The translations under genes were made by a program, and so were the position numbers. The notes below the pieces were generated by a model, which worked only from the letters and a program-made list of their open reading frames with translations, ran no database searches and was not told the DNA's origin. Below are positions 1 through 14,950 of a stretch of DNA of 64,000 bases, piece by piece. How positions within the stretch are numbered: the first letter of the stretch is position 1; every line of letters starts with the position of its first letter. This stretch comes from an uncultured Clostridia bacterium (GTDB taxonomy: Bacteria; Bacillota_I; Bacilli_A; RF39; UBA660): positions 95,086 to 159,085 of the forward strand of contig CAOJDX010000001.1 in NCBI GenBank assembly GCA_948433435.1. Direction: 5' to 3'.

Positions 1-1657
1 GATTTGGTAAGTCCATTTGTATAATAGCTGGTATAGTAGTTGCATCTCCAACTATCAATGCTTCTCCAGCTGATAATGTGGGAAGTCCCTCAACTAATGA
101 ACTATTATTGTCCGGCAATAATCTCTTAACACAATTCTGATCGTTGAAATTTGTTAGTCTTAAAACCACAAAATTATTACATTGGGAAAAAATAGTTTCT
201 GAAACTTCAGATGGTCTTTGACTAACTACCATTAAACTTAATCCATATTTTCTTCCTTCCTTTGCAATCCTTTCAATAGACCTTTTTGCCGCATTGTACT
301 CACTCCCACCTACCTTAGGAATATAATTATGCGCTTCCTCACAAACAATCATAAATGGAATATCATTTAATTCATTATGAGCATGTTTATTTTTTGAATA
401 GTGAAAAGCAAAGTCAAATATTAAGCGTGACACTAAACTAACTGTAATACTTAATACTTCAAAAGGAATACCACTTAAATCGATAATTGATACATTGGAC
501 TTATCAATATAACCAATAAATTGTTTTAATATTTCTGGAAAATCTCCTGTTTTATATTCTGTACCATCTGATTTTTTTGGTGATGTAATAAAGTCTAATC
601 TTTTATCGCTTAGTTTTGTTTCTATTCTTGTAAGAAATCTTTCGAATTCCCCATTAAAAGGGCCATTACTTGCTTTAGTAGCACCAGCAGTAGAAGATGG
701 AATAAAATCAAATTTTTTATTCAAATATTCTTTAATATCTTCTATCAAATTCCCTTCTTTTGTCTTAGGTTTCCCATATTCGTTATCTAATTTACTTATT
801 ACCTCATTATTTAAATTATAAATAAAATTATATACCTCTCCAATCGAAAAATAAACTGGCATATCGTATGTTACTTTTTTATCTGGATTATGCTTTTCTT
901 TACTTAATATAACGGCACGTTTGAATTGTGAAATTTGATTATGAGAATTCATTTCGTTACTTTCTATAAAAAGGGACTCTAATTCTTCTGAATTCATTAA
1001 CCAATATGGAATACACATTTTTTCTACATCTAATATATTTAAATGAAAATTTTGCTCATCACCTAAAGAAAAAGCATTTTTATACTCAGAATGAATATCA
1101 AAGATTATTATATGAGAATTTTTTTGATTGTCCTTATTTTTATTGGTCGCATTACTTATACCACATACTTCCTGTATCATTTTAGCAACAGCACAAGATT
1201 TTCCGCTACCAGTTGATCCAACCACACCAATATGCTTACTAAAAAAAGCATTTCCATTAACATAGTAACTAACATCGTTATTATGTGACAATCTTCCCAT
1301 ATAATATGATGCAGTTTCTGTTGGTGAGAATATTTTATCAACTATATCAGAACTAGTAATATAAACTGGTTCTGTTGGTGAAGGAATATTTATACTTCCT
1401 TGTTTAAATATTACATTACTATCATCTTTAGTATAAGATCCAATAGGCTGAGTCTCAATATAATATTGTATATCATCTCCATCGATAGTCTTTATATTTA
1501 ATATAGTAGCTAAAATATAATTCAAATTTCCTTCTTGAATTGTAAGATATTTCCCTACTTTCAAACTTTCTTTATTATCCTCAAACGATTCTACATCATT
1601 TAATTTTATTTTTATTAATGCACCTGTGCTCTCCAACACTTTACCTATTTCTATCAT
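1..1657 (-). CDS. HerA-like ATPase (DUF87/FtsK-HerA superfamily), defense-associated. The gene runs off the window start, so the C-terminus is truncated.
   Basis: Minus-strand translation starts MIEIGKVLEST at 1657 with an AGGAGGA RBS overlapping the upstream stop. Walker A reads VVGSTGSGKS and Walker B reads FMIVCEEAHNYIP, after a HerA-like N-terminal barrel region. The reading frame is still open at position 1. Confidence 0.75.
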   Translation of the reverse strand, partial: MIEIGKVLESTGALIKIKLNDVESFEDNKESLKVGKYLTIQEGNLNYILATILNIKTIDGDDIQYYIETQPIGSYTKDDSNVIFKQGSINIPSPTEPVYITSSDIVDKIFSPTETASYYMGRLSHNNDVSYYVNGNAFFSKHIGVVGSTGSGKSCAVAKMIQEVCGISNATNKNKDNQKNSHIIIFDIHSEYKNAFSLGDEQNFHLNILDVEKMCIPYWLMNSEELESLFIESNEMNSHNQISQFKRAVILSKEKHNPDKKVTYDMPVYFSIGEVYNFIYNLNNEVISKLDNEYGKPKTKEGNLIEDIKEYLNKKFDFIPSSTAGATKASNGPFNGEFERFLTRIETKLSDKRLDFITSPKKSDGTEYKTGDFPEILKQFIGYIDKSNVSIIDLSGIPFEVLSITVSLVSRLIFDFAFHYSKNKHAHNELNDIPFMIVCEEAHNYIPKVGGSEYNAAKRSIERIAKEGRKYGLSLMVVSQRPSEVSETIFSQCNNFVVLRLTNFNDQNCVKRLLPDNNSSLVEGLPTLSAGEALIVGDATTIPAIIQMDLPN

Positions 1658-1659
1658 TA

Positions 1660-2934
1660 TTATCCTCCTAAATAAAATACATCCATTAAATCCTTTGAAC
1701 TTAATTTATTAACATTAATAGTATTAATTCCAGAATCATCATAATTTTCTATATCCACATCCCCAATAGTAATCAAGTCATCTGGTCTTCGTGGTACATT
1801 TGTTGTCAAATACGAATCAATATCATTATTCCTCATACAAATCTTTAGTTTATTTTCTGAACATCCAAACAATTTATCTATATAAAATTTTCTTCCTGCT
1901 TCACCGTTTTCAAATTCTATTTTATAGGCACTGAATAACAAACTCTGCAATTCTAAATAATTATCTTCATTATCTGTTTCTATAATGAACATAGGAAAAT
2001 AATTAAGTTTTTTCTTACTACAATACTTCTTTAAATACTCCTTAATAAAAAATGCAATTTCTGAAACACGATATCTAGATATATTTACAATTATAACTCT
2101 AAAACTATAATTGCTTTGCAATCTAACTCTTAAACTCTTTTTAATTTCTTCTTTGTATTTTTTTAAATCACATAACTTACTTAACCATTTTGTATAAAGT
2201 AATTCTTTAATTGAATATACCTCATTCTTGAATAAATTACAATCAATAGTTCTTTGTTGCTCATCATCATTAGCACTTAATTCTGCTACTTTTTGAAAAA
2301 AGTTCGGATAAATAATATTCTCTACTTCTTCTTCAGTATATCCATCATTACGAATTTTTTGTTTTATTGTTTCAACTAACAATTCCATTTTAGGTGCCGC
2401 TATCACTTGTGTTTTTTCAATAAAGCTATCTTTGCTAAATTTTAATAACGAATCGCCATTAACATTAATATAATTTGTTATTTCCACAATGTCATCATTT
2501 GTTAATTTGGATTTCTTACATAGTTTTTCGATTTCTTCGGGTAATTCAAATATTTGATGAAAATACTTTTTCACATATTCCTTGTTTTTTGTACTCAATA
2601 TGTCATTTAAAACATCAACTGTAAACTCAATATTATTTTCTTTGGTCACACCATTATAATGAATATATAACTTAAAATTAACATTTTCATATTTCATGTG
2701 TGAAATAATCATATCGAAAATGGGTTTAGCTAAAATACTTGGTGTTACATTTTGCGTCGATTCAAAATACTTACACTGAATAGCTGTTATATTATCTTCT
2801 CGAATAACATCTATATCTTCTATACAGCCTTCTAAAGTTATTTTTGTTCCTGGTGAAGCATTCAACACCTCTAAGATACTTTTATTATGCTGATAATTAA
2901 AACCTTCAATTGTCTGTGTAGCTGTTCTATCCAA
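1660..2934 (-). CDS. DUF4297-like protein, a PD-(D/E)xK nuclease-like partner of HerA
   Basis: A 424-aa ORF with a TTG start at 2934 preceded by an AGGAGGT RBS. The N-terminal motif ...EDIDVIRED...AIQCKY is consistent with a restriction-endonuclease-like fold. It is immediately upstream of, and translationally coupled to, the HerA-like ATPase, which is the known DUF4297-HerA arrangement. Confidence 0.6.
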   Translation of the reverse strand: MDRTATQTIEGFNYQHNKSILEVLNASPGTKITLEGCIEDIDVIREDNITAIQCKYFESTQNVTPSILAKPIFDMIISHMKYENVNFKLYIHYNGVTKENNIEFTVDVLNDILSTKNKEYVKKYFHQIFELPEEIEKLCKKSKLTNDDIVEITNYINVNGDSLLKFSKDSFIEKTQVIAAPKMELLVETIKQKIRNDGYTEEEVENIIYPNFFQKVAELSANDDEQQRTIDCNLFKNEVYSIKELLYTKWLSKLCDLKKYKEEIKKSLRVRLQSNYSFRVIIVNISRYRVSEIAFFIKEYLKKYCSKKKLNYFPMFIIETDNEDNYLELQSLLFSAYKIEFENGEAGRKFYIDKLFGCSENKLKICMRNNDIDSYLTTNVPRRPDDLITIGDVDIENYDDSGINTINVNKLSSKDLMDVFYLGG

Positions 2935-3065
2935 GTTAATACCTCCTATTAAGCAAAAAAATATCTTAATAATAAGATATTTTGATAACTTAATTATACT
3001 ACTTATTTAATCTTTTTCAAAATAAAAATACACTGTTAAAAAACTTATATTTTTCTATGAGGGTT

Positions 3066-3290
3066 AAATGTCGTAATCACCTCTTAAATTCCTATAATAA
3101 AATTCACTAAATTTACTATATTTTTATGATTTTTTAGTATTTTCACTGTTTTTTAGTAAAAATATGCAAGATCTAAAATCGCTCAATCCTTTTATTTATA
3201 AGGGTTTGCTAGAGGTGTTAAATAAATCGTAATCAACCAGTTTATGTTTGTCGTATTTTGTCGATTATTTTCCATCTTTATCACTTCCTT
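3066..3290 (-). repeat. Copy A of a ~225-bp diverged direct repeat, lying in the leader region upstream of the DUF4297-HerA operon
   Basis: It aligns with 5056..5280 through shared blocks aatgtcgtaatcacct, aaatatgcaagat, ttatttataa, aatcgtaatcaaccagtt, ttgtcgattatt and tcacttcctt. It contains two copies of a G(G/T)TGATTACGA motif. Confidence 0.7.
3192..3275 (-). CDS. Conserved short leader ORF inside repeat copy A (MENNRQNTTNINWLITIYLTPLANPYK)
   Basis: An AAGGAAGTGA RBS sits 6 nt upstream of the ATG. A paralogous peptide, MNNNNRQKTKINWLITI, is encoded at the same position in copy B. Confidence 0.25.
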   Translation of the reverse strand: MENNRQNTTNINWLITIYLTPLANPYK

Positions 3291-3824
3291 TTATTTTGTT
3301 TTACTATAATATTCAACTCCAGAATATGTTCCATCTTTATTTAATCTTCTATTTGCAATATAACCATCCTTATTGAACCCTGCTTTTTCCATTACTTTAG
3401 ATGATTGTTTATTTAATTCATTACAAGAACATTCTACCAAATAATAACCACTATCAAGTAAATAATCAGATACCACTTTTAATGCTTCGCTAGCATATCC
3501 ATTGCCCCAATAATCATATCTAACAACATATCCAACATTACAATAATTATGTTTTTTATTTACTGTATTTACTGAAATATTTCCAATTGTTATATTATTC
3601 TCTTTTAAAACAATTGACCATCTTTCATATTTAGATTCTTCTACTTCACTCATGCAATTTCTAATATATTCAAGTTCCTCATCTTTTGTTAAATTAGGAA
3701 ACGGGATATATGTATGCAATCTATCATCATGTAATATTTCATAAAAAGCATCAATATCACTTTCGTTATATCTTCTTAGAATTAACCTCTCTGTCTCTAT
3801 TTTAGGACTTAACATATTTCTCAC
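3291..3824 (-). CDS. GNAT family N-acetyltransferase (RimJ/RimL-like)
   Basis: 177 aa. It has the ETERLILRRY...DIDAFYEI N-terminal signature and a GNAT core (WGNGYASEAL). Confidence 0.8.
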   Translation of the reverse strand: MRNMLSPKIETERLILRRYNESDIDAFYEILHDDRLHTYIPFPNLTKDEELEYIRNCMSEVEESKYERWSIVLKENNITIGNISVNTVNKKHNYCNVGYVVRYDYWGNGYASEALKVVSDYLLDSGYYLVECSCNELNKQSSKVMEKAGFNKDGYIANRRLNKDGTYSGVEYYSKTK

Positions 3825-3834
3825 TACTCCTTTT

Positions 3835-4176
3835 TTATCTATATAAATTTTTCAATACATTAGTAAGACAATCTTCTGCAGTTTTATCTGTGTCAGAGAA
3901 TCTCATTCTAACTAATTTCCCCTTTACCTTAAATATATATGGATTTTTTACTTTAGTCAAAAAATCTAATATTCTTTCGTTACTTGATTTTCTTCTATCT
4001 ATTTTTATAAAACTTATTTCGTCTACATCATCTAGCGTTACATCTTCCAGTTCCATGCTTTTACATCTTTCTAATTTTTCTTTAATTTCTTCAATATTAT
4101 ATTTATCCATAAAATCACACTCCAAATTAATTATATATTCAAATGTAATTAATGTTAAATGTGTGAATTTACTCAT
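3835..4176 (-). CDS. hypothetical protein (the true start may be the internal MDKYNIEE)
   Basis: The ORF is 113 aa and has no recognisable motif. It overlaps the upstream Bro-N gene by 8 nt, and its stop lies 10 nt upstream of the GNAT gene. Confidence 0.4.
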   Translation of the reverse strand: MSKFTHLTLITFEYIINLECDFMDKYNIEEIKEKLERCKSMELEDVTLDDVDEISFIKIDRRKSSNERILDFLTKVKNPYIFKVKGKLVRMRFSDTDKTAEDCLTNVLKNLYR

Positions 4177-5029
4177 TAACTTTACTCTCTATTTTTTGTT
4201 GGTCATCAACATATTGATAATTCAATGCGTTGGTTTTAGAGATTGCAGATTTTTTTGTTTCCTTTTCATATAAATCTCTAGCACCTTTAGCAACTCCTCC
4301 ACCTCTTTTGGCAACTCTCAAATTTTCTTTTAAACCTTGTGGATGTTCCTCTTTTGCGATATCTCGTGTTGCAATCTCTCCTATATTTGTAAGTGCTACT
4401 TCTATATCTGTCATATTATCTCTTAAAGATTCTTTTCTAAGTCCTTTAAATTCTTTATATTCACTTGCTTTCATTCCAGACCAACCTTTATAAATTTCGT
4501 TTGTAAGCAAGGCATATTCCATTGGTTTGGTTATGCCTCTTTCTTTCCAAATATCTGTAAGTTTAAATCTATCTACAATTCCTGTTAATCTAGCCTTAAT
4601 CCATTCATCAGAATATCCTTTACTACGATAATAATTAACTGCACGATTTATAGCAATTTCAGGATCAAATACTTCATCAATTCTCTCACTACCAAGATTT
4701 GCTAGCCATAATTTAAAAGGTTCTGCCTTTGGACTTGGAACTGATTCGATAAGTCTTAGAATTCCTTTCGTATCAAGCACATCTTGATTATAAAATTTAC
4801 CATCTTTTGATTTTAATTTCAGTTGTCCGATTCTTTCGGACAACTCACTTCCCTCATTTTCTAATTTTTTCTTTAAATCGTTCCAATATTTACGTGGTCT
4901 ATCTGATTTAGTTAAAGCAACAATAACATCAACCACACTAAAAAAGTATTCTTCCTTATCACTATCCCATATACTTCTTATTTCCATATCTTCAAATATA
5001 TTTGATATCGTCTCTAACTTATTATTCAA
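4169..5029 (-). CDS. Bro-N domain protein (DinD / phage antirepressor-like)
   Basis: 286 aa with a TTG start. The N-terminal segment IRSIWDSDKEEYFFSVVDVIVALT...PRKYWNDLKKKL...KGILRLIESVPSPKAEPFKLWLA matches the Bro-N/DinD family. Confidence 0.7.
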   Translation of the reverse strand: MNNKLETISNIFEDMEIRSIWDSDKEEYFFSVVDVIVALTKSDRPRKYWNDLKKKLENEGSELSERIGQLKLKSKDGKFYNQDVLDTKGILRLIESVPSPKAEPFKLWLANLGSERIDEVFDPEIAINRAVNYYRSKGYSDEWIKARLTGIVDRFKLTDIWKERGITKPMEYALLTNEIYKGWSGMKASEYKEFKGLRKESLRDNMTDIEVALTNIGEIATRDIAKEEHPQGLKENLRVAKRGGGVAKGARDLYEKETKKSAISKTNALNYQYVDDQQKIESKVNE

Positions 5030-5055
5030 ATTAACACCTTCTTTCTTATGTTCTT

Positions 5056-5280
5056 AAATGTCGTAATCACCTTATTGATTCTTATTATAAATAACACTAA
5101 AATTACTATATTTTTAAGAATTTTTAGTGTTTTTAGCCCTTTTTTAATGAAAATATGCAAGATATAAATTAGAAAATTTCCCTTTATTTATAATAGTTTA
5201 AGAGTGTTCTTAATTAAATTGTAATCAACCAGTTGATTTTTGTTTTTTGTCGATTATTGTTATTCATTTTTTCACTTCCT
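5056..5280 (-). repeat. Copy B of the ~225-bp diverged direct repeat, in the leader upstream of the Bro-N gene
   Basis: It aligns to 3066..3290 with the same conserved blocks in the same order and orientation. Confidence 0.7.
5214..5267 (-). CDS. Short leader ORF inside repeat copy B (MNNNNRQKTKINWLITI)
   Basis: It has the same AAGGAAGTGA RBS as the copy-A peptide and shares its NNRQ...INWLITI core. Confidence 0.2.
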   Translation of the reverse strand: MNNNNRQKTKINWLITI

Positions 5281-5289
5281 TTATTTATT

Positions 5290-5460
5290 ATACAACTTTT
5301 TGATTGCATCACTTTTGAATAAGAACCATCTAGATATTTTCTTATCAAACAATTTATATTTTTCACTTACCTCATCTATATTTAAATATATCTTTCTATT
5401 ATTGTTATTTCTTAAATACCATTTCAACAAATAAGTACCTATTCCCTTTTTTATTAATTT
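5290..5460 (-). pseudogene. GNAT acetyltransferase C-terminal remnant (decayed)
   Basis: The minus-strand translation KKGIGTYLLKWYLRNNNNRKIYLNIDEVSEKYKLFDKKISRWF resembles a GNAT motif A/B region. It has no N-terminal half or start codon. It abuts repeat copy B exactly as the intact GNAT abuts copy A. Confidence 0.4.
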
Positions 5461-6094
5461 CTCCTTTATTTATAGAGCTTTAAGTATGATTGTCTTTATA
5501 TGCCTATACCTCAATTGATTGTCGTTTTTTGCCCATATCCTTTGATATTTATAATAAAGGTTTCAAGTTCTCTAACATTGTTCAAAGTTTTTTAATAATC
5601 TAAAATACTATCATATTCTGTTAATTTTACTGATAATTCCATTCACTTTTTTTACAGCAATATTAGGATATCTTGGGTGAATATAGTTTACTATAATATT
5701 TTTTAATAATTTTTCTTTCATATTTATTACATAATTTGGGTTAAATATATATTAGGGTATTTTTTTATAGATTTCAATTAAATTTTTATGATATATTTTG
5801 ACCATATTCCATAATCCAGTAAACAAGAATAAAACATATATATAAAGTATTCACATGACTTATATATTATATTAGCTGGATACTATACTAGCTATTTCTT
5901 TTTTTGACTTAAAATAATCATTTAATGTCTTAACAATTTTAACATATTGGTGATAATCTATAATTTCTTCTTCTATCGTTTTAATCAGCACTACTTTCTA
6001 TCATATATTTTTTAGTTTTTAGTTTTCTTTATTTTATTATTATTTTCTATTTTAGTTATTTCTGTAAAAGAAAATCTATATTATTCCTTTATCA

Positions 6095-6535
6095 TTAGAA
6101 TTTTTTTCTCAAAAAATTATCTATAGTCCCTGGAGGACAATCTTCAAAAGTGGCATACACTTCATATCCCATTTTTTCATAAAATTCTTTTGCCTGAAAA
6201 TCCCAAGTTTCCATCCTAATACCTATTAATTCTTTCTTTTTGGCCAATTTTTCCATCTCATTTATTAATCTTGTTCCAATATTTTTCCCTCTATACTCTT
6301 TATCAATATATAATAAGTCTAAAAAATACCAATTATATTTGATAAAACCTATTGCTCCACCAATTATCTGATTACTATCATAAACTATAAAATTATACTC
6401 TTGTTCAAAATATTCATCTTGATTTTGTGCTGATTTAGTATTTAACCATTTACAGTGCTTTCTATTAAAAGCAGATAATTTTTGGTCTATTATTTCTTTA
6501 ATTTTTTTGTCATTGTTATTTTTTATTATTATCAT
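6095..6535 (-). CDS. GNAT family N-acetyltransferase
   Basis: 146 aa. It has the motif YRGKNIGTRLINEMEKLAKKK...GYEVYATF. Confidence 0.8.
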   Translation of the reverse strand: MIIIKNNNDKKIKEIIDQKLSAFNRKHCKWLNTKSAQNQDEYFEQEYNFIVYDSNQIIGGAIGFIKYNWYFLDLLYIDKEYRGKNIGTRLINEMEKLAKKKELIGIRMETWDFQAKEFYEKMGYEVYATFEDCPPGTIDNFLRKKF

Positions 6536-6715: not shown

Positions 6716-7238
6716 TTAATATCTTTTACCAATTCTAGAAAAAGGTAAAATTGTATATTGAGCTCTACCTATTATATTTTTCTTTTGAATAAAACCTAGC
6801 ATTCTACTATCTACTGAATTTGTTCTGTTATCTCCTAGAACAAAGTAATGATCTTTTGGAACAGTTAAACTTCCTAAGTCTTTAATATTAAAGTCTGTCG
6901 TTTTCTTATGACTGAAATTTTCCTTTATTTTCTTTCCATTTAAATACAAAATATTATTTCGATATTCTATTTTATCTCCTGGAAGTCCAATAATTCTTTT
7001 AATAATATACTCATTTTTAGCAATAGTTTCTGATTTAGGTACATCTACTACTACAATATCAAATCTTTCTATTTCTTTAAAGTGATATATTATTTTATTC
7101 AAAATCATAATATCTTTATCATGTAGTGTACTATACATAGATGATCCATTTACCCTAATCGGAGAAATTATATAAGATTTTATTAAAATTACTATTATAA
7201 TTAATATAAGGTATTATTTCCTTTATAGTCTGTTTCAT
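6716..7238 (-). pseudogene. lepB: signal peptidase I (LepB, S26) with an apparent +1 frameshift near the 5' end
   Basis: The annotated 140-aa ORF begins at the Met of the catalytic SM motif and contains the VLGDNRTNSVDSR box. Upstream in another frame lies a TM helix plus IISPIRVNGSSM. A separate frame encodes MKQTIKEII starting at 7238, with the frames switching around 7208-7216. Confidence 0.55.
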
Positions 7239-7242
7239 TTTG

Positions 7243-7277
7243 GCACCAAAACAAAAAATAAGGGTTTGGCCCTTATT
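7243..7277 (-). terminator. hairpin and T-run between rplS and lepB (terminator or attenuator)
   Basis: The minus strand reads AAATAAGGG-CCAAA-CCCTTATTT followed by TTTGTTTT, and the hairpin overlaps the rplS stop codon. Confidence 0.45.
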
Positions 7278-7626
7278 TTTGTCCTCTTTCTTTAATTCTG
7301 TATTGACCAACTTTGTCTCTTAAGAATGTAAGTTTGGCACGTCTTACTTTACCTTTACGTACTACAGTAATACCAGCAATCTTTGGTGAATGAATTGGGA
7401 ATGTTCTTTCTACTCCAACTCCAGAAGACATTTTTCTAACTGTGAATGTTTCAGAAACACTTCCATTACGACGGGCTACTACGATACCTTCATATGCTTG
7501 GATACGTTCTTTTCCACCCTCCACAATTTTATAATCCACTTTTACTGTATCACCAACACGAAATTCTGGAATATTTGGATTAATTTGATTTTGATTAATT
7601 TTGTCAATTAAATTCATGAGATTCAT
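7273..7626 (-). CDS. rplS: 50S ribosomal protein L19
   Basis: 117 aa, with [29 protein letters not shown] matching the L19 consensus. Confidence 0.9.
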
Positions 7627-11256: not shown

Positions 11257-13659
11257 TTATTTATCTCTTAAAACTGCATGACATTTTTGGGTTACATCAT
11301 TAATAATCTTATTAAACTGCACCATAACTTCTTCATCAGTTAAAGTACGACTAGGATCATTAAAAGTTAAATTAAAGGCAAGGGACTTTTCGTCTTCCAA
11401 AATATTTTCTCCAATATAAACATCAAATACTTTTATATTGGTTAATAATCTACCTCCACTTTTTCTAATTTGATCAATTAAAATTTGGGCTGGAACATCT
11501 TTCTTAATAATGAAAGCGACATCTTTTTCTATTTCTGGATACTTAGGAGCTGCTTTGTATTTAAGAGGTTTAGTTTCTTTCATTAAAGCATTCATAGAAA
11601 ATTCTGCTATATAAACATTATCCTTTAAATTTTTAGGATGAATGCGACCAATGACTCCAATTTCTTTTCTATCAAGCAATATTTTTGCTGACATACCAGG
11701 ATGCATATCAGGAAGATCTCCTTTTTCGAAGGTATATCGATTTCTAAACCCTAAATAATCTAAGATATTTTCAACAATCCCTTTTACTACATAAAAATCT
11801 ACCTTCAGATTATTATTCTGCCATGAGCTTCCATAATAATTTCCAGCCATTAAAATAGTGATTTTACTTTCTTCTATATAACTAGAATCGTAATATGTCT
11901 TACTAATTTCATATAGGAATATATCTTTTACTTTTCTAGCTTTATTATATTCATAAACTTTTATTAAACTGGGAATCAAACTAGTCCTGATAACTGATTT
12001 ATCAATACTCATAGGATTCGGTAAAACAATATTCTTTTTTTGCTCATAATTGAATGTTTTAGCCATATCTGGACTGGTTAATGTGTAAGTTTTTGTTTCG
12101 TTTAAACCTAGGCTTCTTAATCTTTTAGAAATTATTTTTCGATATTTTACGTCTCCTACATATTGTCCTTGTCTAATTGGTACAGTAGGAAGAGTGGAAA
12201 CTAAATTATGATAGCCATATAGTCTTCCTATTTCTTCAGCTATATCATTAACATTAGGATCAATATCTAACCTTCTATTGGGAATTGTAACAATAAATTT
12301 ATTATTTTCTATATGATAGGGAAAATCCAATCTTTGTAGTTCGATTTTCATATCATCCTCACTAATGGTAATACCAAGCATTTTGTTAATATCTTCTGGA
12401 ATAAATTCGACTATTTTAGGCTGTTTATCTAGTGTATCATAAGCAATAGTCCCAGAAAGCACTTTGGCATTGGCATACTTTTGCAATAAATGACAGGCTC
12501 TGTTAATAGCTTTTTCAGTGTATTCGTAATTTAGTCCTTTTCCATATCTAACAGAAGCTTCACTTCGAAGGTCTAAATTAGTAGCAGTATAGCGTATACT
12601 AACTGGATCAAATATAGCGCTTTCAATTAAAATATTTTTAGTATTTTCATCTACTTCTGTGTTTTCTCCACCCATGACTCCTGCAATACAAACTGGCTTT
12701 TTGGAATCAGTAATGACAATATCATTAGGTGTCAGAATACGTTCCTTTCCATCAAGGGTCGTTATTTTTTCCTTTTCGTTGGCATCTCTTACTAAAATAT
12801 GGTTTCCTAATTTATCTTTATCAAAGAAGTGAAGTGGTTGACCATATTCAAGCATTACATAATTTGAAATATCAACTACATTATTAATTGAGCGCATACC
12901 TGCTTCTGTTAATCTTTTTTTAATAAATTCAGGAGAAGGTCCTATTTCGATATTTGTAACCATTTTGGCTAAATAATAAGGACATTTAGATGTTTCTACC
13001 TTTAGAGTAAAATGATTAGTAATATGATCTTCTACTTCACTATAATCAGCAATTGGTAAAGTTACTTTACGATTTAATATTGCTGCTATTTCATAAGCAA
13101 AACCAATGTGGTAATAACAATCATTATTACGGTGTTTATGAATGTCTAATTCATATAATGTTCCTGCAAATCCTAAATATTCTAGAGGGTCTTTCCCTAC
13201 TGGAGCTTGATTATTCAATTCATGAATACCCTTATTATAGTTCTCTTCAGTTTTTTCTTCTAAGCCGAGCTCAAATAAAGCACAGATCATGCCATTAGAT
13301 TCTACTCCTCGAATTTTACTTTTTTTAATTTCAAAATCACCAGGAAGAATTGCTCCTACAAGAGCAACAATAACTTTAATGCCACTTCTCACATTAGGTG
13401 CTCCACACACAATTTGTTTCACTGTGTCATTGCCTATATTTACCTGACAAATATGTAAATGATCACTATCAGGGTGGTCAGTACATTCTATAACTTCTCC
13501 AATTACCAAATGGTCTATGTGGTTGGTAATTACTTTTTCTATATTGATCCCTGCTTTAGTAATTTTTATAGCTAATTCAGCTAAGTCTTGATCACTAATA
13601 TCAATATATTCTTTTACCCATTCTAAACTAATCATTTTATTCAGCTTCCTTTCTGTCAA
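11257..13659 (-). CDS. pheT: phenylalanine--tRNA ligase beta subunit
   Basis: 800 aa, and its start overlaps the pheS stop. Confidence 0.9.
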   Translation of the reverse strand: MTERKLNKMISLEWVKEYIDISDQDLAELAIKITKAGINIEKVITNHIDHLVIGEVIECTDHPDSDHLHICQVNIGNDTVKQIVCGAPNVRSGIKVIVALVGAILPGDFEIKKSKIRGVESNGMICALFELGLEEKTEENYNKGIHELNNQAPVGKDPLEYLGFAGTLYELDIHKHRNNDCYYHIGFAYEIAAILNRKVTLPIADYSEVEDHITNHFTLKVETSKCPYYLAKMVTNIEIGPSPEFIKKRLTEAGMRSINNVVDISNYVMLEYGQPLHFFDKDKLGNHILVRDANEKEKITTLDGKERILTPNDIVITDSKKPVCIAGVMGGENTEVDENTKNILIESAIFDPVSIRYTATNLDLRSEASVRYGKGLNYEYTEKAINRACHLLQKYANAKVLSGTIAYDTLDKQPKIVEFIPEDINKMLGITISEDDMKIELQRLDFPYHIENNKFIVTIPNRRLDIDPNVNDIAEEIGRLYGYHNLVSTLPTVPIRQGQYVGDVKYRKIISKRLRSLGLNETKTYTLTSPDMAKTFNYEQKKNIVLPNPMSIDKSVIRTSLIPSLIKVYEYNKARKVKDIFLYEISKTYYDSSYIEESKITILMAGNYYGSSWQNNNLKVDFYVVKGIVENILDYLGFRNRYTFEKGDLPDMHPGMSAKILLDRKEIGVIGRIHPKNLKDNVYIAEFSMNALMKETKPLKYKAAPKYPEIEKDVAFIIKKDVPAQILIDQIRKSGGRLLTNIKVFDVYIGENILEDEKSLAFNLTFNDPSRTLTDEEVMVQFNKIINDVTQKCHAVLRDK

Positions 13660-14677
13660 ATACTTTACTTTCTCTTAAATCAGTATGATAAAATACACGA
13701 CAATCCTCTATATCATACTTAAGCATTGCCATACGTTCAGCTCCGAATCCAAAAGCAAAGCCGCTCCATATTTTAGGATCGTAACCACTCATTTTTAAAA
13801 CATTTGGATGAACAATTCCTGCTCCTGCAATAGTAATCCAACCAGTATGTTTACATATGTTACATCCTTTTCTTTTACAATTAAAACAACTAATGTCAAC
13901 TTCTACTGATGGTTCTGTGAATTGGTAGTAACTAGGACGAAAACGTGTTTCAATGTTTTCACCAAATAGTTTTTTTACAATAATGTCAATTGTTCCTTTT
14001 AAATCGGATAAACTAATATTCTTGTCTACTAGTAAACCTTCTATTTGCATGAATTGATGTGAATGAGTTGCATCATCATCATCTCTTCGATATGTTTTGC
14101 CTGGACAAATTACACGAATTGGAATTTCTCCTTTTCCTTTTAGCATTGTTCTTACTTGAACAGGAGAGGTTTGACTTCGTAGTAGAATCTCTTCTCCTTC
14201 TATATAAAAAGTATCTTGAGCATCTCTTGCTGGATGACCTTTGGGAATATTTAGCATTTCAAAGTTAAATTTATCTTCTTCTATTTCAGGTCCATCAACA
14301 ACATCATACCCCATAGACATCATGATTTGTTCTACTTCTTCGATTAGTTTTTCTAAAATGTTAGGGGAACCGTTCTTTATTTTAGTAGCTGGCAAACTGA
14401 TATCAATCGCTTCCTTGTTTAATTTTTCATTTAATAAAATGGTTTCAAATTCTTCCTTCTTTTGTTCGTAAAAATCAATAAATAAAGTTCTGGCTTCATT
14501 TACTTTTTGACCAAATTCTTTTTTTTCTTCTGATGGAACATTTCTAATTTCTTGGTTTAGTTCCGATATAATTCCTTTTTTTCCAAGATATTTTATTCTT
14601 AGCTCATTTAAACTATTTAGATCAGTGACTGTAGCTTTATCTTTTTCTATTAAATTTTTAACTTCTTCTATTTTCAT
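13637..14677 (-). CDS. pheS: phenylalanine--tRNA ligase alpha subunit
   Basis: 346 aa with class II aaRS motifs (FRPSYYQFTEPS, GFAFGFGAERMAML). Confidence 0.9.
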   Translation of the reverse strand: MKIEEVKNLIEKDKATVTDLNSLNELRIKYLGKKGIISELNQEIRNVPSEEKKEFGQKVNEARTLFIDFYEQKKEEFETILLNEKLNKEAIDISLPATKIKNGSPNILEKLIEEVEQIMMSMGYDVVDGPEIEEDKFNFEMLNIPKGHPARDAQDTFYIEGEEILLRSQTSPVQVRTMLKGKGEIPIRVICPGKTYRRDDDDATHSHQFMQIEGLLVDKNISLSDLKGTIDIIVKKLFGENIETRFRPSYYQFTEPSVEVDISCFNCKRKGCNICKHTGWITIAGAGIVHPNVLKMSGYDPKIWSGFAFGFGAERMAMLKYDIEDCRVFYHTDLRESKVFDRKEAE

Positions 14678-14689
14678 CCTAATATATCT

Positions 14690-14950
14690 CCTTTATTTTT
14701 TGTTCTTAGATTATTTTTCAAAAAAAGATAACTATATTTATAAGGACGAAAGCTCGCGGTACCACCTTATTTTATAGTTATCTTACTATACACTCTTCTC
14801 TTTTAACGCAAGATTACGCTTATTATTAATAAGAACTCCTAAGACGAATTCATAAACTATCTTTTCTTGTTTACACCTACCACAAGCTCTCTATAAAAGA
14901 ATCATTTATTACTACTTCTTGATCAACATTGTTATTTTGTATTATAACAT
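14690..14950 (-). ncRNA. T-box riboswitch leader of pheST
   Basis: The minus strand contains the T-box sequence AGGTGGTACCGCGAG (plus 14753..14768). A terminator hairpin (GATAACTATA...TATAGTTATC) follows, and then a T7 run. Confidence 0.75.

Follow-up and report, generated by a model that had tools for sequence, protein, structure and literature searches.

Two diverged repeats in an uncultured gut bacterium as probable insertion junctions of serine-recombinase-linked cassettes stacked at the start of rbgA

In a 64,000-nucleotide stretch of the genome of an uncultured Clostridia bacterium (assembly GCA_948433435.1, contig CAOJDX010000001.1, positions 95,086 to 159,085; hereafter the window), two diverged direct repeats, repeat A (3064-3290) and repeat B (5054-5281), bracket a small group of genes for a Bro-N protein, a DUF6870 protein and a GNAT-type acetyltransferase. 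Each repeat carries a ribosome-binding site (RBS) and a short open reading frame (ORF), and the locus raises the question of what such a repeat is: a regulatory leader, the relic of a duplication or the trace of a moving element. Comparison with related contigs points to the last of these, and we consider it highly probable that the repeats are insertion junctions of serine-recombinase-linked cassettes stacked at the start of rbgA (ylqF). Throughout, coordinates follow the numbering of the + strand, the features themselves read on the - strand, and L-numbers (L071, L166 and so on) are labels of the compared contigs or loci.

The two copies are collinear, and 180 of 231 columns (77.9%) are identical in a global alignment running from the RBS to CATTTAA. 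A repeat search resolved the similarity into two blocks, 3064-3154/5054-5144 at 80% and 3187-3279/5179-5271 at 73%, with a spacing of 1990-1992 nt. An nhmmer profile built from the pair matched the window nowhere but at the two copies themselves (E = 1e-67 and 2e-63), its next-best match having E = 0.27, so that chance similarity is excluded. Repeat A begins directly after the stop codon (TAA, 3291-3293) of an intact GNAT gene, and repeat B directly after the stop (5281-5283) of a decayed GNAT-like ORF. Both open with the RBS AAGGAAGTGA (3281-3290 in A, 5272-5281 in B), followed by the short ORF, which starts at 3275 in A (MENNRQNTTNINWLITIYL...) and at 5267 in B (MNNNNRQKTKINWLITI and a stop). 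The motifs GGTTGATTAC(G/A)A and GGTGATTACGA are present in both copies, and each repeat contains two GATTACGA motifs. The next gene follows repeat A after 129 nt (DUF4297-like) and repeat B after 24 nt (Bro-N). The first-pass annotation had described two diverged collinear repeats, each following the stop of a GNAT ORF and each with an RBS and a short ORF, and this description holds throughout; its placement of the repeats was likewise right, and their exact ends were about 2 nt off. The window has a G+C content of ~27% and reads cleanly in genetic code 11, and no tRNA or tmRNA gene that could provide an alternative attachment (att) site was found in it.

The short ORF, previously taken for a conserved leader, is a duplicated 5' end of rbgA/ylqF, a gene that in the lineage of the window sits downstream of rimM-trmD-rplS-lepB. 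Partial matches of the repeat profile, covering model positions 12-70 (the RBS and first codons only), fall on true rbgA starts in L011, L024, L049 and L059. Twenty-one aligned rbgA genes begin AAGGAAGTGA..ATG..AATCGACAAAA..AAYTGG, continuing with TAYCCNGGNCAYATG, and their consensus, AAGGAAGTGAnnnnnATG..AATCGACAAAAT....AAATATMAAC TGG TAYCCNGGNCAYATGGC, coincides with the repeats on their left side as far as TGG-T. The homology between the repeats and rbgA ends at TGGT, after which the repeats read TGATTACGATTTA; at the protein level, RbgA reads ..NINW/YPGHMAK and the repeat ORFs ..NINW/LITI. The truncated rbgA frames then run into stops inside the adjoining arm, at ATT TAA in B and at the conserved TATAAATAA in A, and neither the C-terminus nor the stop position of the short ORF is conserved (17 aa versus 27 aa).

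Each repeat is a composite junction, the left ~50 nt coming from the unit upstream and the following 176-178 nt being the left arm of the unit downstream. Junction B (5054-5281, attL-type) comprises an old rbgA 5' end (5232-5281), a core TGGT (5228-5231) and the left arm of a unit that we call cassette B (5054-5231, 178 nt including the core). Its left part, 5232-5281, contains the RBS, the ATG (5265-5267) and 12 rbgA codons, and the 13th codon, TGG, opens the core. Apart from 1 nt, this part equals the functional rbgA start of the empty-site strains, and it shares homology with the start of rbgA at 21 loci; it is, on these comparisons, the rbgA start that was resident before the insertion.

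The empty site was found by comparing strain haplotypes within the species of the window, defined as contigs that encode an identical RplS or DUF4297-like protein with the same flanking genes. L071, which shares 99.93% identity with the window across 9 kb, and L077 carry the two modules of the window. L080, L081 and L085 have neither cassette B nor any other, and in them the decayed GNAT ORF and the left part of repeat B are joined directly to rbgA (..CGACAAAAAACAACAATCAACTGGT/ATCCTGGTCATATGG; in a longer reading of the joint, ..AATAATCGACAAAAAACAACAATCAACTGGT/ATCCTGGTCATATGGCC); the same 5' part as in junction B here continues straight into the gene (..ATCAACTGGT/ATCCTGGTCATATGG). L078 has, at the same base, TGGT/TGATTACGA and a different 1.34-kb cassette (arm, DUF6870 gene and deaminase-like gene), followed by a new rbgA start and TGGT/ATCCTGG. 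The rbgA start of L071 is a further variant (MSENQDKVFGKTSINW/YPGHM). The locus is polymorphic for the presence and absence of cassettes, with a precise empty site, and all haplotypes differ at one and the same base.

Because a C/T polymorphism just left of TGG and a T/A divergence just right of TGGT bracket it, the exchange point lies within the 4 nt TGGT. This core is common to the empty site and all junctions and is the centre of a palindrome, which is perfect as ATCAAC-TG-GTTGAT (6+2+6) and extends to AATCAAC-TG-GTTGATT (7+2+7) in L078; at the level of sequence, it thus has inverted symmetry around a non-palindromic central dinucleotide, TG.

The unit between the two repeats, cassette B (3240-5227; 1,992 bp core to core), consists of the 178-nt left arm, the Bro-N gene (4169-5029), the DUF6870 gene (3835-4110), the GNAT gene (3291-3824) and a right arm with a replacement rbgA start (3240-3290), and a Pfam search found no recombinase gene in it. 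PADLOC assigns the Bro-N protein to its phage-defence candidate PDC-S13, with a match along the whole length (E = 1.6e-112). A homologue of cassette B in L022 is 85.8% identical and has a different neighbouring module. Junction A (3064-3290) joins the right arm of cassette B (RBS 3281-3290, ATG 3273-3275) through a core TGGT (3236-3239) to the left arm of module A (3064-3239, 176 nt).

Module A (1-3239) is cut by the edge of the window, where it comprises the left arm, a promoter-like site (2993-3020), a DUF4297-like gene (1660-2934) and a truncated HerA gene (1-1657); the PADLOC matches are DUF4297 (3e-32) and HerA (4e-165). On L071 (L071:10001-15926), the module, 6,320 bp core to core, continues with a DUF4365/restriction-endonuclease-like gene, a 132-aa gene, a gene for a large serine recombinase and a right arm, and rbgA follows. 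In L013, from a different species representative, module A is 99.87% identical and is followed by another cassette.

Both left arms end in the same 19-nt motif, AGGTGATTACGACATTTAA (3064-3082 in A; 5054-5072 in B, 24 nt before the Bro-N start codon), which is identical in A and B and 80-99% conserved over 182 unique arms. It repeats the half-site sequence beside the core, GGTGATTACGAC, in direct orientation. Two other candidate features of the arm were rejected: a palindrome of copy B, ACACTAAAA..TTTTAGTGT, is by eye not kept in other copies, and 44-aa and 39-aa ORFs of copy B, considered as conserved ORFs inside the arm on either strand, have stops in copy A.

The recombinase of module A (L071:14691-15926; 411 aa) has Resolvase, Recombinase and Zn_ribbon_recom domains, and its gene ends 45 nt before rbgA. 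A recombinase gene thus lies inside the element beside one att end in module A and not in cassette B. Among solved structures, its closest relatives are TnpX (catalytic domain, the best match, 1.9e-28), the TP901-1 integrase and SPbeta SprA/YokA. Homologues with 74-91% identity are common, and modules with recombinases 74-100% identical (window/L071, L086, L088) all have the standard left arm; the contig of L013 ends before the arm. One homologue (P0013, 74%) lies directly before rbgA, downstream of an array in which modules with Bro-N and KilA-N stand together with one made up of the arm, a 97-aa gene and PDC-S06, and another (P0006, 78%) ends a module composed of the arm and an AbiP2 defence reverse transcriptase. 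Recombinase and right arm are identical in L013, but TGGT/TGATTACGA from another cassette comes next there, in the place that rbgA takes in L071. A more distant and very abundant enzyme (P0113, 42% identical) is also found in an array adjoining rbgA, in which L212 and L214 differ by insertions at the same core. The P0113 module of L212 (L212:5780-5888) has a different left junction, AACTGG/GAAAGCCC, and different recombinase clades may use different arms at the same rbgA core. The locus of a 48%-identity recombinase, L090, has no clear duplicates of the rbgA 5' end. Taken together, linkage and site architecture suggest that the serine recombinase makes the junctions.

Insertion at this point would separate an essential gene from its start, and the right arms contain what is needed to restore it: an RBS, an ATG and 12-16 codons of rbgA, to which L071, L086, L013 and L166 add an extended -10 box. 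The extended -10 box TTATGATATAAT stands between the recombinase stop and the RBS of rbgA, and TGATATAAT is a candidate promoter ahead of rbgA; in the rumen contig L166, a T-run and TGCTATAAT precede the right arms. With these start codons, RBSs and -10 boxes, the elements appear to supply the expression signals of essential rbgA.

The comparisons give the following course of events. Insertion at TGGT detaches the resident rbgA start, which is left behind as a short dead-end ORF, and the right arm of the incoming cassette restores rbgA. The restored site is open to a new insertion, so that cassettes stack, the newest presumably beside rbgA. In the window, junction B joins the old rbgA start to cassette B, and junction A the right arm of cassette B to module A. 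The enzyme would be the large serine recombinase at the rbgA-proximal end of module A, cutting at the central dinucleotide within TGGT, probably the TG in the centre of AATCAAC-TG-GTTGATT. Cassettes that have the same left arm and no recombinase, such as cassette B, may be moved in trans by such a recombinase or may be relics. Homologous recombination between conserved junctions may also reshuffle cassettes. Beyond its first ~25 nt, the arm probably holds accessory recombination sites and/or an outward promoter, not a structured RNA.

To assess how widespread such junctions are, we searched other genomes and metagenomes. The 19-mer AGGTGATTACGACATTTAA occurs exactly in 70 loci of a collection with one genome per species, all of them in metagenome-assembled genomes from the gut of rabbit, mouse and other hosts, with the labels uncultured Bacilli, Tenericutes, Erysipelotrichaceae or Clostridia. 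The genome loci were viewed as 8-kb pieces, and the two-copy profile identified 97 junctions in 66 of the 70, mostly full length, up to 4 per piece and ~2 kb apart. A metagenome scan with the core AAYTGGTTGATTACGATTTA retrieved at least 120 further loci, from human gut, rumen and ground squirrel, and 113 of them contain 188 junctions. No copies were found in phage and plasmid collections (BLASTN of the repeat) or in viral contigs (19-mer scan, 0 matches). Each of the two arms of the window is 84-88% identical to arms in other species and 77.5% identical to its neighbour. The first-pass annotation had also raised the possibility of a recombination unit that shuffles cassettes, and the strains with empty sites or alternative cassettes, the hundreds of junctions and the recombinase at the rbgA-proximal end bear this out. 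The ground on which that annotation would have given up its reading, a mere local duplication with no copies elsewhere, is clearly contradicted.

The location and build of the arrays are recurrent. The 8-kb piece extends to lepB or rbgA at 40 of the 66 loci. Among the genes, 538 of 568 share the direction of the repeat. The layout, on one strand, is rimM-trmD-rplS-lepB, then cargo, a repeat, a gene for RhuM, Bro-N, KilA-N or DUF1016, a DUF6870 gene, cargo and again a repeat, ending in ylqF/rbgA, rnhB and topA. All cassettes have a left arm of ~176 nt that starts TGGT/TGATTACGATTTA and ends AGGTGATTACGACATTTAA, carry their cargo on the strand of the host operon, and close with a right arm, 50-110 nt long, which imitates the rbgA start up to the conserved Trp codon, sometimes with an extended -10 promoter ahead of it. 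The first gene after the repeat, by Pfam in the species-representative loci, encodes RhuM (26), Bro-N (19), KilA-N (9), DUF1016 (7), DUF6870 (6) or ParA (2). Cassettes bounded on both sides (n = 84) have a median size of 1.85 kb and range from 0.48 to 10.6 kb. The densest arrays, with 8 junctions in 7 kb before rbgA in the metagenome locus L166 (L166:1-9400) and 5 junctions in 3 kb in L188, consist mostly of single-ORF cassettes of 93-411 aa.

The commonest cargo families, among the best 25 of 147 Pfam families in 140 cargo cluster representatives, are GNAT (10) and NUDIX (5), with Peptidase_S51, UDG, HAD, HD, SMC_N and dCMP deaminase. Recombinase-bearing modules carry defence cargo (DUF4297-HerA, AbiP2, RT_UG31, PDC-S06). 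In many cassettes, the DUF6870 gene comes after a Bro-N, RhuM, KilA-N or DUF1016 gene; a literature search found no paper mentioning DUF6870. ParA-ParB pairs follow some junctions (L017, L041, L062, L164, L188 and L214), a Mob_Pre relaxase gene lies within one array (L213:9528-10604), and one recombinase-bearing array (L088:15840-19236) lies away from rbgA, beside type IV secretion genes and an IS30-like gene. These contexts hint at plasmid-like or conjugatively mobilised members.

More tentatively, the arrays may amount to an integron-like platform for gene capture, in which a serine recombinase acting in cis or in trans inserts and excises self-expressing cassettes of 0.5-10 kb, anti-phage systems among them, at the rbgA start, with the 176-nt arm as universal site. 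We offer this broader proposal as a possibility that at present seems somewhat more apt to fail than to hold.

Another explanation of the conserved arm is that it is mainly a shared promoter or operator that drives the cassette and, by read-through, rbgA, and that responds to a common DNA-binding regulator. Such a function, which is compatible with a role in recombination, we regard as rather doubtful. Promoter-like blocks are indeed conserved in the 182 arms, namely TCTTGCAT (-35-like; the TTGCAT block), TAAAAT, and TAnnnT followed by AGGAAT; the arm ends 17-40 nt before the first start codon, many of the first genes encode DNA-binding domains (Bro-N, KilA-N, RhuM), and the Bro-N gene of cassette B has no other obvious promoter. 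However, a consensus scan found no sigma-70 site at equivalent positions of the two copies and 18 sites in all, as against 21.4 +/- 4.3 in shuffled sequence. The spacing of the candidate hexamers is, in our reading, 19 nt or irregular, and module A has its own promoter-like site downstream of the arm (2993-3020, 11/12 matches). A terminator scan of the repeats found none.

A further alternative accepts the scars as real and assigns the present shuffling to homologous recombination, acting in the ~230-bp junctions or in the lepB/rbgA flanks, for example after DNA uptake; another recombinase might have made the junctions, and the serine recombinase might move its own module only. The mosaic structure of some junctions speaks for it, arm B being of the proximal type usual with RhuM, yet followed by a Bro-N gene, as does L166, where all right arms are nearly identical to the genome's own rbgA start, which suggests gene conversion. 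It also draws on the lack of a recombinase gene near most arrays and on the failure to find circles, both considered below. Against this stand breakpoints exact to 4 nt across unrelated contexts and species, a left arm that is the same in recombinase-bearing and recombinase-less cassettes, a core whose 6+2+6 palindrome (7+2+7 in L078) is typical of serine-recombinase sites, and the fact that a first junction cannot arise by homologous recombination. We thus consider this explanation unlikely, and homologous recombination between junctions probably contributes.

Several observations weigh against insertion by the serine recombinase. The joint expected of a circular module A, represented by an attP-specific 23-mer, had 0 matches in metagenome contigs, assemblies being a poor source for rare circles, and no overlapping contig ends, which would indicate circles, were found among 120 metagenome loci. 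None of the 20 genome loci that contain rbgA has a recombinase gene directly upstream of it, and most arrays therefore have no enzyme nearby, within the visible 8 kb. The conserved arm, at 176 nt, is much longer than the 40-50 bp that serine integrases need according to one study (bioRxiv 10.1101/2025.05.02.651858). Recombinase-less cassettes have right arms that look like resident rbgA starts, and an integrase that discriminates attP from attB might refuse such a circle. The module of the 42%-identity enzyme, P0113, has a different left junction in L212, and this enzyme may therefore not use the standard arm. Finally, a tyrosine recombinase elsewhere in these genomes is a possible enzyme.

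A cis-regulatory module was what the first-pass annotation favoured, in the form of a leader-peptide attenuator, a small RNA or a shared operator; to the RNA forms, a riboswitch controlling the downstream operon may be added. The pattern is suggestive at first sight, with an RBS and a short ORF conserved in both copies, then conserved non-coding blocks just upstream of genes, and an 8-bp pairing, UAAUCGAC/GUUGAUUA, that can be drawn by eye and appears in single-sequence folds. Yet the short ORF is the rbgA start, functional in empty-site strains, and its end is set by whichever stop the arm supplies; conservation is at the nucleotide level, wobble positions included. RNAalifold on 44 unique arms gave -1.36 kcal/mol and 9 predicted pairs, 0 of them compensatory, and single-sequence RNA folds are no better than shuffles (z = -1.34 and -0.67). 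With Rfam 15, the region had no match at the gathering threshold, and relaxing the limit to E <= 10 added only two chance eukaryotic families. The downstream genes are mutually unrelated (Bro-N, RhuM, KilA-N, DUF1016, ParA, DUF4297, single ORFs). A regulatory RNA is, on this evidence, highly improbable.

The position of both copies after a GNAT-type ORF, one intact and one decayed, might suggest that a GNAT gene was recently duplicated on the spot together with its downstream region and that the repeats are a functionless remnant. This is scarcely credible, since the two GNATs differ, only the intact one having a detectable Pfam match (Acetyltransf_3), the arms of other species resemble each arm more closely than its neighbour does, ~285 homologous junctions exist elsewhere, and GNAT is the commonest cargo anyway (10 of 140 cargo clusters).

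Insertion junctions of stacked cassettes have parallels among known mobile elements, although no description of this system was found in the searchable literature (searches for ylqF with serine integrase, integron-like serine-recombinase arrays, DUF6870, and RhuM with DUF1016 or KilA-N). The closest analogue seems to be the composite islands of staphylococcal cassette chromosome elements (SCC, SCCmec), including recombinase-less pseudo-SCC. As described in PMC11470126, these elements use Ccr serine recombinases, stack in tandem with direct repeats that hold a gene end, include recombinase-less members moved by the Ccr of a neighbour, and are enriched in anti-phage cargo. The integration site of SCC is the end of the housekeeping gene rlmH. 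The two systems are alike in having a serine recombinase, a housekeeping-gene end as target, tandem arrays, recombinase-less members and defence cargo. They differ in the end that is targeted, the 5' end of rbgA here and the 3' end of rlmH in SCC, and the cassettes at rbgA must therefore carry an RBS, a start codon and sometimes a promoter for the essential gene. Furthermore, the rbgA cassettes are much smaller than SCC (median 1.85 kb, down to 0.5 kb), their conserved junction is much longer (~230 nt), and their hosts are uncultured gut Bacilli rather than staphylococci. The recombinase at rbgA is closest, among solved structures, to TnpX, the TP901-1 integrase and SprA, and Ccr lies outside that comparison.

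Accretion of cis-mobilizable elements (CIMEs) is also close. CIMEs keep attL and attR and have lost integration and transfer genes, and new elements integrate beside them in tandem (PMC5704250). Cassette B (3240-5227), with only Bro-N, DUF6870 and GNAT genes between two junctions, fits this definition. However, CIMEs, as with ICESt1/ICESt3 of Streptococcus thermophilus, are decayed integrative and conjugative elements (ICEs) or integrative and mobilizable elements, with tyrosine integrases, at the 3' end of fda, whereas the recombinase-less units at rbgA are small, regular, often single-ORF and abundant across species and, unlike CIMEs, have no sign of an origin from conjugative elements. The 5' end of rbgA itself is a target of Streptococcus ICEs, which leave the RbgA N-terminus unchanged and sometimes replace the upstream region; these elements are large and conjugative, with tyrosine integrases and direct repeats of 12-54 bp (PMC4701971). 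They share the rbgA end targeted here, and neither cassette arrays nor a long conserved arm has been described for them.

With integrons, the arrays share small, often single-ORF cassettes in one orientation, a fixed chromosomal point and a similar cargo (GNAT, NUDIX, defence). Sedentary integrons also store anti-phage systems, according to bioRxiv 10.1101/2024.07.02.601686. Unlike integron cassettes, those at rbgA insert inside an essential gene and have their own expression signals. The Pfam table from lepB to topA lists only the serine recombinase and no IntI-type tyrosine recombinase at the locus; the search for tyrosine recombinases among array proteins was not exhaustive. No attC-type hairpin was found: the internal repeats run in the same direction, folding of the single-stranded DNA gave z = -0.67, and there is no consensus structure. 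Elements of the Tn4451/TnpX type are small and depend on one large serine recombinase for their movement. Tn4451, a mobilisable transposon, has several target sites, whereas the cassettes described here form a stacked array at one essential gene.

The remainder of the region bears traces of older events and some features of its own. The gene order in the window, all on the - strand, is rimM, trmD, a 147-aa gene, rplS, lepB (6716-7138), GNAT2, debris, repeat B, Bro-N, DUF6870, GNAT, repeat A, DUF4297-like and HerA. The segment from lepB to junction B (5282-6535) holds older decayed cassette material, also present in empty-site strains: GNAT2 (6095-6535), non-coding debris and the decayed GNAT-like ORF (5281-5430). 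The ~800 nt of debris and decayed ORF between GNAT2 and repeat B (5282-6094) are probably an old cassette that has lost its left arm. Compared with L071, to which the window is otherwise 99.93% identical, the lepB gene (6716-7315) lacks 5 nt (TTACA) at ~7200, and this deletion splits the 199-aa signal peptidase into ORFs of 51 aa and 140 aa with loss of the N-terminal anchor; the split is either a frameshift variant or an assembly error. The only genuine Rfam match of the window is at 14739-14935 on the - strand, where a T-box leader (RF00230, 120 bits, E = 4.7e-26) precedes pheS-pheT (13637-14677, 11257-13659).

The rbgA arrays suggest how an essential gene can take an element into its 5' end, namely when the element brings a substitute promoter, RBS and N-terminus, and they call for caution in annotation, since short "leader ORFs" before island genes can be insertion scars. 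The exact motifs TGGTTGATTACGATTTA and AGGTGATTACGACATTTAA provide a diagnostic marker for what appears to be a widespread cassette-stacking hotspot in poorly known gut bacteria. Anti-phage systems and small enzymes that modify nucleotides or metabolites are concentrated in this hotspot (DUF4297-HerA, AbiP2 and UG31 reverse transcriptases, PDC-S06, PDC-S13, GNAT, NUDIX, deaminase, UDG), and its junctions could be used for mining new defence genes. The serine recombinase and its natural site pair, with a target conserved across many species, may also become a tool. Integrons are not known from Firmicutes. Should the integron-like proposal be true, uncultured Bacilli from the guts of humans, rodents, rabbits and ruminants would possess an analogue of the integron cassette system.

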